Source: a virus
DNA length: 64,000 bases
IMG/VR virus record: IMGVR_UViG_3300047284_000378
Strand: one strand, 5' to 3'
The notes under the pieces are model-generated. The model was not told the origin of the DNA and ran no database searches. It was given only the letters and a program-made list of their open reading frames with translations. The position numbers and the translations under genes were made by a program. Positions 1 to 43,506 of this stretch are shown here, piece by piece; within the stretch, counting starts at the first letter, position 1; every line of letters begins with the position of its first letter.

Positions 1-484
1 TATTGATAGCCAATGGGCCTATCTCTGTCATGCCCCAATTGGTTATAAATCTAGCTCCCTGTGCCACAAATGTTCTAACGATATCCCAGGTAACTGGATC
101 TGCACCGCAGGTGATCGTGATACCATTTAGGTCTAGATTATAGAAGTTTTTGGTAGACATTATAGCTTTGGCATGTAAAGGAGTTATGTGAGTATGTGTA
201 TAGTTCTTGATATCTCTAACCCAATCATAGGCGCTGAAGGCTACAATATCTACTTTGGCTCCTATTTCCAAACCTGGTAATGTCTGAGCTAATAGACCGC
301 CTGCATGGGTGATCTTACAACAGGTATAGATACTACTATGCTTATCGATACCCTGAACCTGTCTAGCCACTGAGTTGGCTGCTTTCAATTTTTTAGGAGA
401 CTGATAGAATTCTTTGGCCGTACCGCTGGTTCCAGAACTCTGTATAGTAATTCCATTTTTTAGGATAGTTAAGTAATCGATCAT
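1..484 (-). CDS. Adenylate-forming (ANL/AMP-binding superfamily) enzyme, runs off the left edge
   Basis: Not in ORF track. Manual translation from ATG 484 (in-frame stop at 502-500): MIDYLTILKNGITIQSSGTSGTAKEF...CGADP...NWGMTEIGP, matching the A3 (TSGTTGxPK) and A5 (YGMTE) motifs. Confidence 0.75.
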   Translation of the reverse strand, partial: MIDYLTILKNGITIQSSGTSGTAKEFYQSPKKLKAANSVARQVQGIDKHSSIYTCCKITHAGGLLAQTLPGLEIGAKVDIVAFSAYDWVRDIKNYTHTHITPLHAKAIMSTKNFYNLDLNGITITCGADPVTWDIVRTFVAQGARFITNWGMTEIGPLAIN

Positions 485-522
485 GTTTGGTGCCCTAGAT
501 TAAATATTTAATGCGCATTAGG

Positions 523-551
523 TTGTTCTTATCAATTTAAGAATATATAAT
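523..551 (+). promoter_or_regulatory. sigma70-type promoter for the tRNA-like RNA
   Basis: TTGTTC(523-528)-17nt-TATAAT(546-551); predicted start about 558, the first base of the acceptor stem. Confidence 0.6.
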
Positions 552-557
552 ATCATT

Positions 558-668
558 GTGGTCGTGAGTGGAACATGGAAGACCTCCGGTCCGTTGCGAA
601 ACGCACTAGGGAATAGGGCGCCGTCTTAGACACAGCCTTTGTAGGTTCGAATCCTACCGACCACACCA
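558..668 (+). tRNA. Atypical 111-nt tRNA-Leu-like RNA with no canonical anticodon arm
   Basis: 7-bp acceptor stem GTGGTCG/CGACCAC plus A-CCA; perfect T-arm GTAGG-TTCGAAT-CCTAC; Leu-type D region GGAA..TGG.AGAC; about 55 nt between D and T arms. Confidence 0.75.
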
Positions 669-713
669 GATTCTATGATAAGTAGAATACTACTAACAAA
701 GAGGAAACATTAT

Positions 714-917
714 ATGTCAAACACAGTAGAACAACTTAAAGCACAATTTGAAGAATTCCTAGCAGAAGATGCTAAATTTTCAGGCGGAAATTCTGCAGCA
801 GGTACTCGTGCTCGTAAAGCACTTCAGGAAGTCGCCAAGTTAGTCAAGGCACGTCGTAACGAAATCACAGAAGAAAAGAACGCTCGTAAAGAAGCCAAAG
901 CCGCAGCAAAGGCCTAA
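714..917 (+). CDS. Histone H1-like (Hc1-family) small basic DNA-binding protein
   Basis: GNSAAGTRARKAL motif and K/A-rich tail; SD GAGG upstream of ATG 714. Confidence 0.7.
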   Translation: MSNTVEQLKAQFEEFLAEDAKFSGGNSAAGTRARKALQEVAKLVKARRNEITEEKNARKEAKAAAKA

Positions 918-918
918 T

Positions 919-1416
919 ATGGACGATAAGGATACCTATATCCTTAGCGGCAGCGGAACTGACAGCATCACAGTCACAGATACAGTAACCCTGGATCTTG
1001 ACTTTGGTGCTGCTCAACCTGCATTGACCTCGACGGACATACAAACTATCACACTCGATGATCTGATCACAACATCTACTATTACTTTTCCCCAAGCATC
1101 TTATTCTATCAGCGGTACTAGCATTAACAATAGTGTATATACTACAGGTACATCGGGATATACCTGGACACAGCCCTATACTCCTACTGTTAATATTGGA
1201 AATAACGGTATTGACATGGCCGCTGGCACTGACATCAAGATCGACGGTAAGAGTCTTAAAGAGTTTATGACAAAAATGGAACAACGATTATCTATTCTTG
1301 TTCCTGATCCCGAAAAATTAGAAAAGTTTGAAGCTCTTAAGAAAGCCTATGAGCATTACAAAACCATGGAAGCCTTATGCTTCCCTGAAGAGAAAGACAA
1401 AAAGAATGAATGTTAA
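919..1416 (+). CDS. Hypothetical protein (Thr/Ser-rich N-terminus, helical C-terminus)
   Basis: ORF track; tightly packed between neighbours. Confidence 0.7.
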   Translation: MDDKDTYILSGSGTDSITVTDTVTLDLDFGAAQPALTSTDIQTITLDDLITTSTITFPQASYSISGTSINNSVYTTGTSGYTWTQPYTPTVNIGNNGIDMAAGTDIKIDGKSLKEFMTKMEQRLSILVPDPEKLEKFEALKKAYEHYKTMEALCFPEEKDKKNEC

Positions 1417-2077
1417 ACTCGTATCCTATTCACAACCAACAGGCGAATTTAGAGATATGGGCATCTCAGATGCGCAGGAACTCATTGCGTATTGCGCCCG
1501 TGTGTCCAATCCATCCAACCAACTCAATACAGAGACATCAGAGAAGCTTATACGATATCTTGTTAAACACGCACACTGGAGTCCCTTGGAGATGGTTTCA
1601 GCCTGCGTCGAAATCACCACAACCAGAGATATCGCAAGACAGATCTTACGTCATAGAAGTTTCTCCTTTCAAGAGTTCAGTCAGCGATATGCTGACCCTA
1701 CTAAAGACCTCTCGTTCGTACTTCGAGAAGCACGACTTCAAGACCCAAAGAATAGACAGAACAGCGTCGAAACAGATGACGAACGCCTACAAAGAGAATG
1801 GGAACTTAGGCAAAACAATGTCATCACCGAAGCCAGACTGGCCTATGAATGGGCTATCTCTAAGGGCATAGCTAAAGAACAGGCTCGTGCAGTTCTTCCA
1901 GAGGGATTGATAGAAAGTAAACTGTATATGAACGGCACACTGCGTTCATGGGTACACTTTATCGAACTACGCTCGGCAAATGGCACACAAAAAGAACATC
2001 AGCTAGTAGCACTGGCCTGCGCCAAAGCCATCGCCGCTATCTTTCCTATGACTGAAAGTCTAATTCAAAATGGATGA
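1406..2077 (+). CDS. thyX: FAD-dependent thymidylate synthase
   Basis: RHRSFSFQEFSQRY signature, HWSPLE; start reassigned to ATG 1406. Confidence 0.95.
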   Translation: MNVKLVSYSQPTGEFRDMGISDAQELIAYCARVSNPSNQLNTETSEKLIRYLVKHAHWSPLEMVSACVEITTTRDIARQILRHRSFSFQEFSQRYADPTKDLSFVLREARLQDPKNRQNSVETDDERLQREWELRQNNVITEARLAYEWAISKGIAKEQARAVLPEGLIESKLYMNGTLRSWVHFIELRSANGTQKEHQLVALACAKAIAAIFPMTESLIQNG

Positions 2078-2453
2078 AGAACTCAAAGATTTCTGTAAGA
2101 ATTATGAAGTCCGTATCCTAAACGATCAAAAGTATAGGGCACGATATCATCCTCCTAAATTTTTTACAATCCCCGAACGTGCTGACATCATTCGCAATGA
2201 TATTGTTGAGTTTGAACGAGAAAGAGTATTCACTTTAGAAATACCCGAAGGTAGAATGCGATCATTGATAGAAATGGAACGACGTTTTTACAAATGGCAG
2301 CGCCATAGTCCGGGCGAGATTGATATGTTCGAAACTCTAATGAACAAAGAGCGGGAAGAAGCATACTATCGTAATACCAGTCCTGCTGTCCAAAAAGCCT
2401 ACGAGCAATACTCGATCATGCTCAATCTAGCTGGTTACCAAAAGAAATTTTGA
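2070..2453 (+). CDS. Hypothetical protein
   Basis: ORF track; overlaps thyX stop. Confidence 0.7.
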   Translation: MDEELKDFCKNYEVRILNDQKYRARYHPPKFFTIPERADIIRNDIVEFERERVFTLEIPEGRMRSLIEMERRFYKWQRHSPGEIDMFETLMNKEREEAYYRNTSPAVQKAYEQYSIMLNLAGYQKKF

Positions 2454-39810: not shown

Positions 39811-39831
39811 GTCTTCATGTATAATACAAGT

Positions 39832-40680
39832 ATGGATTACTATAATATTTTAGGTGTTAATAGAAATGCTAGTCAGGATGAGATAAAATCAGCCTATCGA
39901 AAGATGGCTATGAAATATCATCCCGATCGAGGCGGAGACGAAAAAAAATTCAAAGAAGTTGAAGAAGCTTATCGCACACTAAGCGATCCACAAAAGAAAC
40001 AGGTGTTTGATATGGGAGGTGATCCCAATAATCAAAACGGTGGATTTTATAATCAAGGTCCGTTCGAATTCCATTTTGGCACGGGCAACATGAACGACAT
40101 ATTTGGAAATTTCGGGTTCGGTGGCCCGTTTGGTTTTGGTAATAGGAATGTGCAGAGAAACAAATCCATAAACATCGCTGTAGAGATCACACTAGAAGAA
40201 GTTCTACAGGGAAAAGATATTGATGCAGAACTAGCTATCCCCGGCGGTAAAAAGAAAATCATCAACATCAGTATTCCTCCTGGCATAGAAGACAATCAAC
40301 AGATCAGATATCAAGGTATGGGGGATAACAGCATACCTCATATGCCCCCCGGTGATCTTTTAGTAAACATAAGAGTACTACCGCATATTGAATTCCGTAG
40401 AGAAGGATCAAACATTGTTGTAGATAAAATAGTTTCAGTATGGGATGCTATCCTAGGCTGTTCTCTCAGTATTAAAACCCTGGATAACAAAACTCTACAA
40501 ATTTCAGTGCCGCCTGGCACACAACCAGAAACTGTTCTCAGCTGTAAGAACGAAGGCTTACCTTTGATGAGAACTCAAAGACGCGGTAATCTATTAATAA
40601 AAATTAAAGTAGAAATACCAAAAAATATAAATCAACAGACAAAGTCTACTATCGAGAAATTAAAAAATAATGACATTTAA
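39832..40680 (+). CDS. dnaJ: DnaJ/CbpA-type co-chaperone (no Zn finger)
   Basis: J domain with HPD, G/F region, C-terminal substrate domain; start reassigned to ATG 39832. Confidence 0.9.
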
Positions 40681-41164
40681 ACTAGGACCTCACGAATCTC
40701 TAATAACCCCTAGCACTGAATGGAACTTTGGATCAGACGGCGATGCTCGACTGTTGGAAGAGCAAATGATAGATTTCATGCAACAAAATAACGGCATAGG
40801 TCTAGCGGCTAATCAAATAGGCTTTACCAAGCGTGTGTTCGTAATGGGCAGTGAAAATATCGAAGGATTCCCAAGACCGTTCGCTGTGTTCAATCCCAAG
40901 ATCATAGAATACAGTGAGGACACAGAAATTTCACAAGAAGGCTGTCTTAGTTACCCAGATCTATGGTTAGGTGTAAAAAGGCCTAGAAGTATTATTGTAG
41001 AGTATCAAAACAGCAGCGGCGACACTGTTACCGCTGAAATGACCGGATTAATTTCAAGATGTTTTCAACACGAGTACGATCACTTAGATGGTATATGTTT
41101 TGTTGACAAAGTAAGCCAACTGAAATTAAACTTAGCTATGAAGAAACTTAGGAAAAAGAAATAA
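40670..41164 (+). CDS. def: Peptide deformylase
   Basis: [24 protein letters not shown]. Confidence 0.95.
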
Positions 41165-43506
41165 TGATCGAACCAAGCTCAAATCTGCAACAAATTTTTG
41201 ATAATGCAGTTGAACATGCTAAACAATTAAATCACGAATACATAACCATTGAGCATTTGGTATATGCTATTCTCTGCGACGAGCCCTCATTTCAAATTAT
41301 AGAAAATTATGGTGCCGACGCTAATTTTATCAAAACTAATCTAGAACATTATATCAAAAACAACATGAACGATATCAAGGCCGTTGATCCAGATCAAAAG
41401 CCTAAAAAGACCAGTTCTGTTGAGCGAGTATTAAATCGTTGTTTCACACAGGTGTTGTTCAGTGGAAGACAACGAATGGAAGTAGCTGACATAATCATCA
41501 GCATACTCAGCGAAAAAAATAGTTTCGGTTTTTATTTCTTGAGCAAAGGCGGGTTGAGCAAAGAAAAATTTATCAAGTACTTCCAAGAAAATCTGAATTA
41601 CGAAGAAGAAGAAGAAACAACAACACAGGTAGCCACTAGCTCGCAAATGGAAAGAATTATCAATCAGTTCTGTACTAATCTCAGCCTTTTGGCTAAACAA
41701 CGTAAGATCGATCCTGTGATCGGAAGAGATGAAGAATTAGAAAAGATACAACTCATTCTCGCAAGAAGAAACAAGTGTAATGTATTGATGGTGGGTGATC
41801 CCGGTGTAGGTAAGACTGCCATTGCCGAAGGCCTGGCTCGTAAGATCTTTGAAAAGAAAGTTCCTAAGTTCATCCAAGATCATCAGGTCTATACGCTAGA
41901 TATCAGTGCCCTACTAGCAGGTTCGAAGTATCGAGGCGACTTTGAAGAACGTATCAAAGCAGTTCTAGCTTCACTAGAACGCAAGGGTAAAATTATCCTG
42001 TTCATCGACGAAGCGCACATGATGCAGGGCGCGGGTGCAGCTAACCAGAGCTCAAACGATCTAGCTAATATTCTCAAACCTATCCTTACCAAAGGTATCA
42101 TCAAATTAATCGCTTCCACTACCTGGGACGAGTATCGTAAGCACTTCGAAAGCGATCGTGCATTGATGCGTCGATTCCAACGTGTTACAGTAGATGAACC
42201 TAGTCAAGAAATGACTGTTAAGATTCTCAAGGGTATCCGTAAGTATTATGAAAAACATCATAATGTAAAAATCACCGATGCAGGTATCGATCAAGCGGTC
42301 AAGCTATCTATCAAATACATGGCTGACAAGAAACTGCCAGACAAGGCCATCGACATCATCGACTGTGCTGCTGCTCGTTACAAGCTCAAGGACGATCCTA
42401 CAGAAGAAGGCATCGAACAGCTCGTAGATGTCGAACAAATCACCTACGAACTTAGCAAGATGATCAATATGCCATTAGAAACCGTGGCGCAGAAAGAAAG
42501 CAAGAATCTAACAGGTCTAGAAAAAGGTATGAAAGCAGCAGTCTACGGACAAGATGCGGCTGTAGATACTCTGCTTGATAAGATCTTTGTAGCACAGGCC
42601 GGAATGAAACATCCCAACAAGCCTGTTGGATCTTTCTTGTTCTTAGGTCCTACAGGCACAGGTAAGACCGAAACTGCTAGAACACTAGCAGATAAGATGG
42701 GTATGGAATTAGTTAGGTTTGACATGGGAGAATATCAAGAGAAGCACTCTGTGGCAAGACTTATCGGTGCTCCTCCAGGTTATGTTGGCTACGAAGATAA
42801 TGCTGGTCAACTGATCACTAAACTACAAGAGCATCCTAATGCTATCCTATTGTTAGACGAAATTGAAAAAGCACACCCAGATGTCAGTAACATTCTACTA
42901 GCATTTATGGACAACGGTTTTATCACCGGAAGCAACGGTAAACAGGCAGATGGTCGTAATTGTATTCTTATCATGACCAGTAACCTTGGTGCCAGAGATA
43001 ACGAAAACAATGCCATTGGTTTCGGTGATCTAAGCAAAGACGGAGAAGACGACAAGGCCGTTAAAAAGTATTTTGCTCCAGAATTCCGTAATCGCTTAGA
43101 CGCTGTTATCAAATTTGAAAAGTTAGGTATCAACGTTGTTATCCAGATCGTTAATAAGTTTATTTCCGAACTGAATTCTCAGCTCAAAGATAAGAATATC
43201 GAAATCGTGTTAACAACAAAGGCACAGAAGTGGTTAGCTGAACAAGGGTACGATAGCAAGATGGGTGCAAGACCCTTAGCAAGATTGATCGATAATAAGA
43301 TTAAATCTCCTCTCAGCCGCAGAGTATTATTCGGTGATCTCGTCAACGGAGGCAAAGTCACTGTTGATATCGAGGATAATGAACCGGTCTTCGCAGTTGA
43401 AGATTTTGTAAAAACATTAACTAGAGCTGCCAAGAGAAAATTAGGTATCGCCGACGAAATCGCAGTTACTGAAACTAATGATATCAAAGAAGAAAATAAC
43501 CAATAG
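41164..43506 (+). CDS. clpA: ATP-dependent Clp protease ATPase subunit ClpA
   Basis: Clp N-domain, two AAA+ modules (GDPGVGKT, GPTGTGKT), no ClpB M-domain, IGF loop (AIGFG). Confidence 0.9.
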   Translation: MIEPSSNLQQIFDNAVEHAKQLNHEYITIEHLVYAILCDEPSFQIIENYGADANFIKTNLEHYIKNNMNDIKAVDPDQKPKKTSSVERVLNRCFTQVLFSGRQRMEVADIIISILSEKNSFGFYFLSKGGLSKEKFIKYFQENLNYEEEEETTTQVATSSQMERIINQFCTNLSLLAKQRKIDPVIGRDEELEKIQLILARRNKCNVLMVGDPGVGKTAIAEGLARKIFEKKVPKFIQDHQVYTLDISALLAGSKYRGDFEERIKAVLASLERKGKIILFIDEAHMMQGAGAANQSSNDLANILKPILTKGIIKLIASTTWDEYRKHFESDRALMRRFQRVTVDEPSQEMTVKILKGIRKYYEKHHNVKITDAGIDQAVKLSIKYMADKKLPDKAIDIIDCAAARYKLKDDPTEEGIEQLVDVEQITYELSKMINMPLETVAQKESKNLTGLEKGMKAAVYGQDAAVDTLLDKIFVAQAGMKHPNKPVGSFLFLGPTGTGKTETARTLADKMGMELVRFDMGEYQEKHSVARLIGAPPGYVGYEDNAGQLITKLQEHPNAILLLDEIEKAHPDVSNILLAFMDNGFITGSNGKQADGRNCILIMTSNLGARDNENNAIGFGDLSKDGEDDKAVKKYFAPEFRNRLDAVIKFEKLGINVVIQIVNKFISELNSQLKDKNIEIVLTTKAQKWLAEQGYDSKMGARPLARLIDNKIKSPLSRRVLFGDLVNGGKVTVDIEDNEPVFAVEDFVKTLTRAAKRKLGIADEIAVTETNDIKEENNQ

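Follow-up and report, generated by a model that had tools for sequence, protein, structure and literature searches.

A tRNA-shaped RNA of 111 nt, encoded at positions 558–668 on the plus strand of the window (the whole stretch of 64,000 nucleotides of viral DNA analyzed here, IMG/VR record IMGVR_UViG_3300047284_000378), was shown to be a selected, tRNA-Leu-derived RNA that lacks an anticodon and heads an operon with a sigma-70-type promoter. The elements of the RNA gene and its immediate surroundings are the following:

523–528 (+): –35 box TTGTTC, separated by 17 nt from the –10 box; most relatives have TTGAC(A)
546–551 (+): –10 box TATAAT, ending 6 nt before G558
558–564 (+): 5' strand of the acceptor stem, GUGGUCG, pairing with 658–664; 7 bp, perfect in the window
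565–585 (+): U8, G9 and tRNA-Leu-type D arm (AGUGGAACAUGGAAGACCU); Leu-type residues invariant in 94 sequences
586–610 (+): equivalent of the anticodon arm, a helix of 10 bp containing a C.C mismatch and one bulged A (RNA positions 29–53: C29-G53, C30-G52, bulged A51, G31.U50, G32-C49, U33-A48, C34.C47, C35-G46, G36-C45, U37-A44, U38-A43); covariation in homologs
596–599 (+): GNRA tetraloop GCGA capping this helix (RNA positions 39–42, G39-N-G-A42); relatives have C, U, A or G at loop position 2
611–615 (+): junction G-AAUA (RNA positions 54–58), a conserved G followed by 2–4 variable nt
616–638 (+): long variable arm (RNA positions 59–81) with GGGC/GCCU, a 3x3 internal loop and GUC/GAC; basal and distal stems covary
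626–628 (+): UUA triloop of the variable arm; UUA in 59 of 86 folded members
639–640 (+): UU linker with the candidate U48 partner of A15; (U)UU conserved before the T stem
641–657 (+): T arm GUAGG-UUCGAAU-CCUAC; two of five pairs changed on both sides
658–664 (+): 3' strand of the acceptor stem, CGACCAC, complement of 558–564
665 (+): discriminator A73, present in 94 of 94 sequences
666–668 (+): encoded CCA, present in 93 of 94 sequences
670–688 (+): hairpin AUUCUA-UGAUAAG-UAGAAU without U tract, 60–90% conserved in subfamily 1
714–917 (+): Hc1 (histone H1-like) gene (Pfam PF07432, 7e-16) with ribosome-binding site GAGG at 701–704

Fold of the RNA and covariation in its family

The earlier note on this DNA had described an RNA at 558–668 with a perfect acceptor stem, an encoded CCA, a T arm, A73 and a Leu-type D arm, all of which we found again, and the distance between the D and T arms, estimated there at about 55 nt, was measured as 55 nt. 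The RNA has the 7-bp acceptor stem, the D arm, the T arm and the UUCRANY-type T loop of a cloverleaf, and its acceptor and T arms covary. ARAGORN, which searches for both tRNA and tmRNA and had been proposed as a check at the time, called neither anywhere in the window. The Rfam tRNA model (RF00005) scored the RNA at 29.1 bits as compared to a gathering score of 29, which it attained only by omitting 52 nt and by placing GCCGU-CUUAGAC-ACAGC in the anticodon arm; one relative reached 28.3 bits, which is below threshold. A minimum-free-energy fold of the single sequence was no better than that of shuffled sequence (z = –0.55), and the structural case therefore rests on the comparison of homologs.

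Homologs were collected with the exact 3'-terminal 25-mer of the RNA and with a degenerate pattern placed on the D arm and the T loop, the matches of which are a lower bound. Both sources together gave at least 177 IMG/VR loci, corresponding to 94 distinct RNA sequences of 98–119 nt with pairwise identities of 55–100% and with scores of 84–115 bits in a covariance model of the family, termed R1. In the R1-based alignment of the 94 sequences, 98.9% of the cells are paired and 12 of the 21 pairs are changed on both sides. The observed covariation score was equaled by none of 500 shuffles, and slid registers drop to 27–48% paired. Seventeen variants of the acceptor stem exist, in which five of the seven pairs are changed on both sides (GUGGUCG, GUAGACG, ACAGACG, GCAGACG and GUAGUUG among them, with a matching complement in each). 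T-stem variants comprise GUAGG/CCUAC, GCAGG/CCUGC, AUAGG/CCUAU and GAAGG/CCUUC, and conservation of the T loop exists partly by construction since the homolog scans demanded a near-canonical T loop. Within the D arm, AGUGGAA, GG, A and ACCU are invariant in all 94 sequences (family pattern GUGAGUGGAA..UGGNAKACCU), the only variable part being a spacer of 1–5 nt before GG.

With regard to the region between the D and T arms, for which a larger branched domain had been suggested in the earlier note, the homologs instead show two unbranched hairpins, and the layout, as read from the aligned sequences, is that of an ordinary class II cloverleaf whose anticodon end is sealed. Both hairpins covary, which answers the covariation check of the insert that had been proposed together with that suggestion, and the central and variable arms covary also within the subfamily of the window. 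In alignment A1, the covarying pairs of the anticodon-arm equivalent are 33:54, 34:53, 35:52, 37:48 and 38:47, and the U-A pairs beside the GNRA loop are present in the alifold consensus. Among the three small hairpins formerly drawn in the insert, GTC-TTA-GAC is retained, as the variable arm's GUC/GAC stem, present in the window, is replaced by GAC/GUC, GCU/AGC or GGC/GCC in relatives; CTA-GGGAA-TAG finds no support in homologs, and TGCG-AAA-CGCA has to give way to UU-GNGA-AA, given that its C is free to vary in the homologs. Readings of 558–668 as a tRNA-Leu(UAG) with a 35-nt insert or with an extra arm on the wrong side are contradicted by covariation.

The two hairpins differ in their variability. 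Triloops other than UUA are AUU, CUA, AUA or GUA among the 86 folded members. The central arm ranges from 16 to 40 nt in the family and is capped by UUCG, GNRA or other loops. Minimal members feature a 6-bp UUCG hairpin of 16 nt (CCUCCC-UUCG-GGGAGG) at this position, while other forms include GAAA-capped helices, helices with an AGUA/GAA internal loop (16 of 94) and arms reaching 40 nt. That the CCUCC/GGAGG stem of the central arm could serve as an SD/anti-SD element was considered but is speculative and without support.

Such freedom in arm length and cap is incompatible with decoding, for which the distance between elbow and anticodon must be fixed, and judging from its sequence the RNA is almost certainly unable to decode. 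It is thus very improbable that the family represents real decoding tRNAs, be it a tRNA-Leu(UAG) with a 37-nt D/anticodon-arm insertion, a spliced tRNA or a quadruplet or odd-loop decoder with an 8-nt UUGNGAAA loop or, in minimal members, with CUUCGGG. This explanation could draw on the Rfam match barely at cut-off with GCCGU-CUUAGAC-ACAGC as anticodon arm and on the assignment of two minimal members, L132 and L143, to tRNA-Arg(UCG) by ARAGORN. The ARAGORN call, however, is obtained by moving the UUCG hairpin by one register, which introduces a C.A mismatch, and the Rfam anticodon loop is ruled out because the exchanges of GUC/GAC for GAC/GUC, GCU/AGC and GGC/GCC preserve the triloop hairpin and break the Rfam stem, leaving loops like UGUAAGC without U33. 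In agreement with the earlier note, neither ARAGORN nor, in view of this covariation, the Rfam alignment provides a 7-nt anticodon loop with U33. The would-be anticodon furthermore shifts among close relatives (GNGA with N free, UUCG, UUUG or UUAG), an arm of 16–40 nt stands against the fixed elbow distance needed, and the phages already own tRNA-Leu(UAG) and tRNA-Arg(UCG). Splicing to a standard anticodon, which had been raised as a possible objection to a tRNA mimic, has nothing to remove in a 16-nt UUCG hairpin, and the arm of the minimal members leaves no such anticodon to form.

A second objection raised at the time, decay to a functionless pseudo-tRNA or integration-site remnant, is scarcely credible. 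A single locus, L017, would fit it; the copy found there is 5'-truncated and located behind a terminator, and the RNA is therefore dispensable at least in the L017 lineage. The homologs as a whole are conserved, however, with covariation in every helix, invariant residues at the tertiary contacts, a conserved consensus promoter whose spacing does not change and one orthologous copy each in phages with PolB proteins that are 77–86% identical.

Carriers, promoter and downstream genes

The carriers constitute one clade of large uncultured freshwater phages of about 280–350 kb. PolB encoded in the window is 77–86% identical to PolB of three large relatives and 44–51% identical to that of the jumbo phages Phosso and Atu_ph07 and of 350-kb coliphages. 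Relatives of 282 and 345 kb are available, the larger one being 94% complete. The relatives carry 27–31 canonical tRNAs in one cluster, including tRNA-Leu with the anticodons UAA, UAG and CAA, all with encoded CCA, and the RNA occurs as a single copy per record at a distance of 20–40 kb from this cluster.

The exact 3'-terminal 25-mer of the RNA is present in 110 IMG/VR contigs and in at least 119 freshwater metagenome contigs; among the metagenome matches listed, in which metatranscriptomes are not distinguishable, none begins where nucleotide 1 would be expected. The runs listed with window positions 300–2300 are freshwater DNA runs only, with no RNA run among them. Comparison of two members with 50,697 phage records by blastn revealed no further member, yielding either nothing or similarity to the T arm of tRNA-Tyr only, and a scan of 185,579 bacterial and archaeal species genomes, limited by the pattern used, gave two matches, neither of which is a member. 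Application of R1 to the cultured phages S-SRM01, T4, Phosso, Atu_ph07 and Turkey3 detected ordinary tRNAs only, with tRNA-Leu scoring best at 34–41 bits. Overall, the best canonical matches to R1 are tRNA-Leu genes with 34–52 bits, reaching up to 51.8 bits in related phages.

Each of the 94 distinct homologs has a TATAAT-like hexamer that ends 6 nt ahead of nucleotide 1 and is conserved to 96–99% per position. The –35 element starts with TTG in about 99% of all members and reads TTGAC in more than 90% of subfamily 2; several members possess a perfect TTGACA-17-TATAAT promoter, as compared to TTGTTC-17-TATAAT in the window, the –35 box of which matches at three of six positions and is omitted by a stricter promoter scan. 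The conserved spacing backs the claim in the earlier note that transcription would start at nucleotide 1, the predicted start being G558. A start at this position would mean that there is no 5' leader to remove and therefore no need for a cut by RNase P. The promoter sequence implies transcription by the host sigma-70 RNA polymerase, and expression is probably early.

No terminator-like site was found on the plus strand between 668 and 714, that is, between the RNA and the Hc1 gene. In subfamily 1, to which the window belongs, an Hc1 gene lies 40–45 nt past the CCA in 102 of 105 loci with enough flank. In subfamily 2, the CCA is directly followed by the AU-rich sequence UUUUUAAC and then, about 25 nt downstream, by a gene for a small signal-peptide protein. 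The next gene in locus L049 is a tRNA gene, such that the RNA heads a tRNA operon.

This arrangement bears on the possibility that the RNA acts in cis as the 5' module of an early operon, where it could protect the triphosphate end, set a processing site or tune the next gene. Processing could then follow the principle of tRNA punctuation, with enzymes of the RNase E/Z type cutting after the CCA and the freed RNA arising as a by-product. Promoter, RNA and coding gene are indeed arranged in series without terminator in both subfamilies, the gap to the next start codon amounts to only about 25–45 nt, and both the AU-rich UUUUUAAC of subfamily 2 and the tRNA operon headed by the RNA in L049 would fit. 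RNase E favors AU-rich sites of this kind. A role in cis, however, needs neither an invariant A73 nor Leu-type D-loop residues nor a variable arm that is long and covaries. The subfamilies have different downstream genes but both keep the RNA, and for punctuation the ordinary tRNAs of these phages would do just as well. We consider this explanation rather unlikely.

Probable leucine identity and possible functions

In Escherichia coli, leucine identity is established by A73, the A15-U48 pair, G18G19, A20a and contacts of the D loop with the T loop, with A73 being essential for leucylation (PMC9976931). A tRNA-Leu without anticodon and variable arms is still leucylated by the E. coli enzyme, both arms being dispensable (PMC9976931), which agrees with the statement in the earlier note that LeuRS largely ignores the anticodon. 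In the family described here, the D arm closely resembles that of genuine tRNA-Leu from related phages, GUGGUGGAAUGGUAUACAC, from which it differs by one extra A. The residues matching A14, A15/U48, G18G19, A20a and the D/T contacts are invariant (GGAA, GG, an A 2 nt after GG, UU and UUCGAAU). Numbering of these determinants follows the analogy with E. coli tRNA-Leu, and the tertiary pairs are candidates; by the same analogy, the U at 639–640 is a candidate for the Levitt pair. On this basis, the published determinants of bacterial LeuRS are all present and invariant in the family. Parts that LeuRS ignores, on the other hand, are variable, and variation is seen in the acceptor pairs, the central arm and the variable arm.

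Because the known bacterial LeuRS determinants are kept, the host LeuRS probably binds and leucylates the RNA. The pattern of invariance is the one expected from selection for recognition by LeuRS, although it would partly be expected also from any constraint on a tRNA fold, and charging is for this reason stated as probable only. Clear Watson-Crick pairing in the D stem is limited to two pairs, and one nucleotide is present in excess of genuine tRNA-Leu, which might impair recognition by LeuRS. Of the chargeable but non-decoding mimic proposed in the earlier note, the second attribute is well founded, as no member has a usable anticodon loop, and the first is in line with the invariant LeuRS determinants.

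A leucylated RNA of this kind could be a dedicated aminoacyl carrier that passes leucine to a non-ribosomal acceptor from a donor pool kept from translation. Candidate enzymes are the host L/F-transferase or Bpt in the N-degron/Clp route, enzymes of the Fem or CDPS type and the phage enzyme cluster arranged head-to-head with the RNA. The LeuRS determinants are intact, a ClpA/B-type ATPase is encoded at window positions 41164–43506, as already pointed out when a role in the N-degron route was first suggested, and a divergent gene for a minimal adenylate-forming enzyme (AMP-binding, PF00501) shares the intergenic region upstream of the RNA. The L/F-transferase itself (PF03588), however, was found neither in the record of the window nor in two near-complete relatives; class I synthetases (PF00133) were not found in these two relatives either, and neither a LeuRS-type synthetase nor an L/F-transferase was found in G000, G001 and G002, although an enzyme of the host may supply the activity. 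No family of aminoacyl-tRNA-dependent transferases was recognised beside the RNA, and the open reading frame beyond the AMP-binding gene has no Pfam match. The AMP-binding gene recurs as upstream neighbor in only one of the 177 other loci, on which grounds a functional link to it was rejected. Taken together, a carrier function appears improbable.

We tentatively favor an action in trans, in which the RNA would be an early-expressed, leucylatable and non-decoding stand-in for tRNA-Leu or class II tRNAs, a possibility we entertain seriously without regarding it as established. The RNA is kept across subfamilies while the gene downstream is swapped (Hc1 versus the small signal-peptide protein), and the conserved parts are those recognized by enzymes that approach tRNA from the acceptor, elbow and variable-arm side. 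We rank a decoy for a factor that binds the body or tail of tRNA higher than a function as 5' leader or as aminoacyl donor. According to this proposal, the host sigma-70 RNA polymerase would start at nucleotide 1 of a near-consensus, early-type promoter; the transcript would continue into the next gene, and host tRNA 3'-end processing would free the RNA at its encoded CCA. The product would adopt a class II tRNA fold with acceptor stem, D arm, long variable arm and T arm, in which a sealed helix, arbitrary in its length, forms the anticodon end. Host LeuRS would probably bind and charge it, and the ribosome could not use it because it has no anticodon. The RNA might then tie up a host factor that takes hold of the body or the 3' tail of tRNA, e.g., a defense nuclease or a tail-modifying toxin, by which the real tRNAs of phage and host would be spared. 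It speaks against such a decoy that it would need to compete with the whole tRNA pool for a catalytic nuclease unless it binds much more tightly, and the position of the RNA, always directly before a coding gene without terminator, fits a role in cis as well.

tRNAs are a main battleground between phages and bacterial immunity, and the known answers of phages are spare tRNAs and tRNA repair enzymes. The immune nuclease Cas12a3 grips the T arm, the acceptor stem and the CCA tail of tRNA (PMC12851939), and prokaryotic Schlafens and other enzymes cut many tRNAs including phage-encoded ones (PMC13056530). More specifically, the RNA could be an RNA-based means of counter-defense, an early and abundant leucine-tRNA decoy jamming an enzyme that attacks tRNA bodies or tails and not anticodons, although we regard this narrower version as doubtful. 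The trap would consist of the intact acceptor stem, T arm, elbow, variable arm and CCA, with the sealed anticodon end avoiding the ribosome, and candidate targets would be a nuclease that cuts tails, a nucleotidyltransferase that extends them or an acetyltransferase acting on aminoacyl-tRNA. A decoy against anticodon nucleases, as had been envisaged in the earlier note, is unlikely given that the loop they recognize is absent.

A conserved, strongly promoted and non-decoding copy of a tRNA points to a second use that phages make of the tRNA shape, possibly as a decoy, as a carrier of amino acids or as a transcript module. Since the family is large and cleanly delimited, and its RNA short enough for synthesis, charging, partners and effects on tRNA-targeting defense are directly testable even with the phages being uncultured.

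Comparison with known tRNA-like RNAs

A description of anticodon-sealed, Leu-type tRNA mimics from phages was found neither in Rfam nor in the literature searched; in the main text of a 2023 catalogue listing 10,006 candidate viral RNAs, tRNA-like motifs are referred to in general terms only. Closest in structure are class II tRNA-Leu molecules (RF00005), with which the family has in common an acceptor stem of 7 bp, A73-CCA, U8, a D loop of Leu type (GGAA..GG.A.AC), the long variable arm and the canonical T arm. In contrast to them, it has neither a 7-nt anticodon loop nor U33 but a sealed helix of 16–40 nt, its variable arm is longer (17–27 nt), one extra nucleotide precedes the D stem, and its genes have their own promoter starting at nucleotide 1 and are sited away from the tRNA cluster. 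The same logic underlies the engineered minimal tRNA-Leu of E. coli, for which the top half, the D/T core and A73 suffice for leucylation (PMC9976931). Whereas these are laboratory constructs, members of the family are natural and selected, keep a closed helix and a large variable arm, and are charged only by inference.

Small stable phage RNAs with tRNA-like parts and unassigned function also include species 1 and 2 of phage T4 (rnaC and rnaD), and rnaC carries the T-arm-like sequence CCGGGUUCGAAUCCCGG. They are not homologous to the family, with R1 giving 18 bits for rnaC as compared to 84–115 bits for members and no match for rnaD. The annotated rnaC does not end in CCA, and both T4 RNAs lie within the tRNA cluster and are not Leu-shaped.

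The tRNA-like domain of tmRNA resembles the family as a tRNA mimic without anticodon, and this domain is charged. tmRNA, however, comprises 260–400 nt, takes its alanine identity from G3.U70, has pseudoknots and a coding domain in addition to a D arm that is reduced, and acts together with SmpB. In the family, pair 3:70 is G-C in the window, mostly G3-C70 or A3-U70 overall and G.U in just two of the 94 sequences, and no tag reading frame can fit because the RNA has only 111 nt. Mimicry of tRNA is well known from tmRNA, the Y-RNA-like YrlA, the 3' ends of plant viruses and the stable RNAs of T4 and T5, and for this reason the family extends known tRNA mimicry rather than founding a new category.

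Genes accompanying the mimic in the window

With regard to its immediate surroundings, the mimic, i.e., the tRNA-Leu-shaped RNA that lacks an anticodon loop, is flanked by the following genes:

Window 714-917: Hc1-type histone H1-like phage gene, directly downstream of the mimic
Window 2-484, minus strand, continuing in viral contig L316:146-2130: minimal AMP-binding (adenylate-forming) protein of 243 aa

The Hc1-type gene shares 75% DNA identity with the "histone H1" gene of the Synechococcus phage S-SRM01; upstream of that S-SRM01 gene, no mimic is present. The AMP-binding gene is transcribed divergently from the promoter region of the mimic and is followed by a gene for a 417-aa protein without any Pfam match; as a neighbor of the mimic it is common to only one other locus, L096. 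At a different position, the window carries three adjacent host-like genes for protein quality control:

Window 39817-43506: DnaJ (PF00226 and PF01556), peptide deformylase (PF01327) and a ClpA/B-type double AAA+ ATPase

Deviating and mislabeled members of the mimic family

Contig L017 harbors a 5'-truncated copy of the mimic, in which the end of an open reading frame and an intrinsic terminator take the place of the promoter and the first ca. 24 nt, while the Hc1 gene is retained downstream:

L017:6074-6260, minus strand: 5'-truncated mimic copy
Preceding this copy: intrinsic terminator, AGGGCAC..GUGCCCU-U7

Two of the minimal members, i.e., those with a 16-nt UUCG-capped central arm, are called as tRNA-Arg(UCG) by ARAGORN (L132:4647-4745 and L143:8519-8618). 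ARAGORN arrives at these calls by placing the UUCG hairpin one register off, and part of the mimic family will thus be mislabeled by automatic annotation. A G3.U70 wobble pair occurs in two members, L113 and L128 (acceptor GUGGACG/CGUCUAC). This pair is the identity mark for alanine; in the two members it is probably a mere intermediate between A3-U70 and G3-C70.

Other tRNA-shaped RNAs on viral contigs

The acceptor stem AGUCAGG/CCUGACU is common to a set of Leu-type tRNA-shaped RNAs (L200, L212, L220, L226, L257, L267, L272, L299, L305 and L313), all of which also have a Leu D arm and the discriminator A73. They end with CAA, not CCA, and feature unrelated central regions of 50-80 nt without an anticodon loop. 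Class-II-shaped tRNAs with a long variable arm are present in L213, L216, L221, L222, L233, L236 and others. They combine a Leu-like D loop and a G73-CCA 3' end with an anticodon loop, CUGUUAA or CUGUUUA, that contains the Asn anticodon GUU; a long variable arm would be unusual for tRNA-Asn. Furthermore, tRNA-Leu(UAA)-like genes in L199, L223, L242, L280 and L296 carry a structured anticodon-loop insertion of ca. 30 nt. This insertion is located directly 3' of CUU, the site classically occupied by cyanobacterial group I introns, but it is much too short for such an intron.
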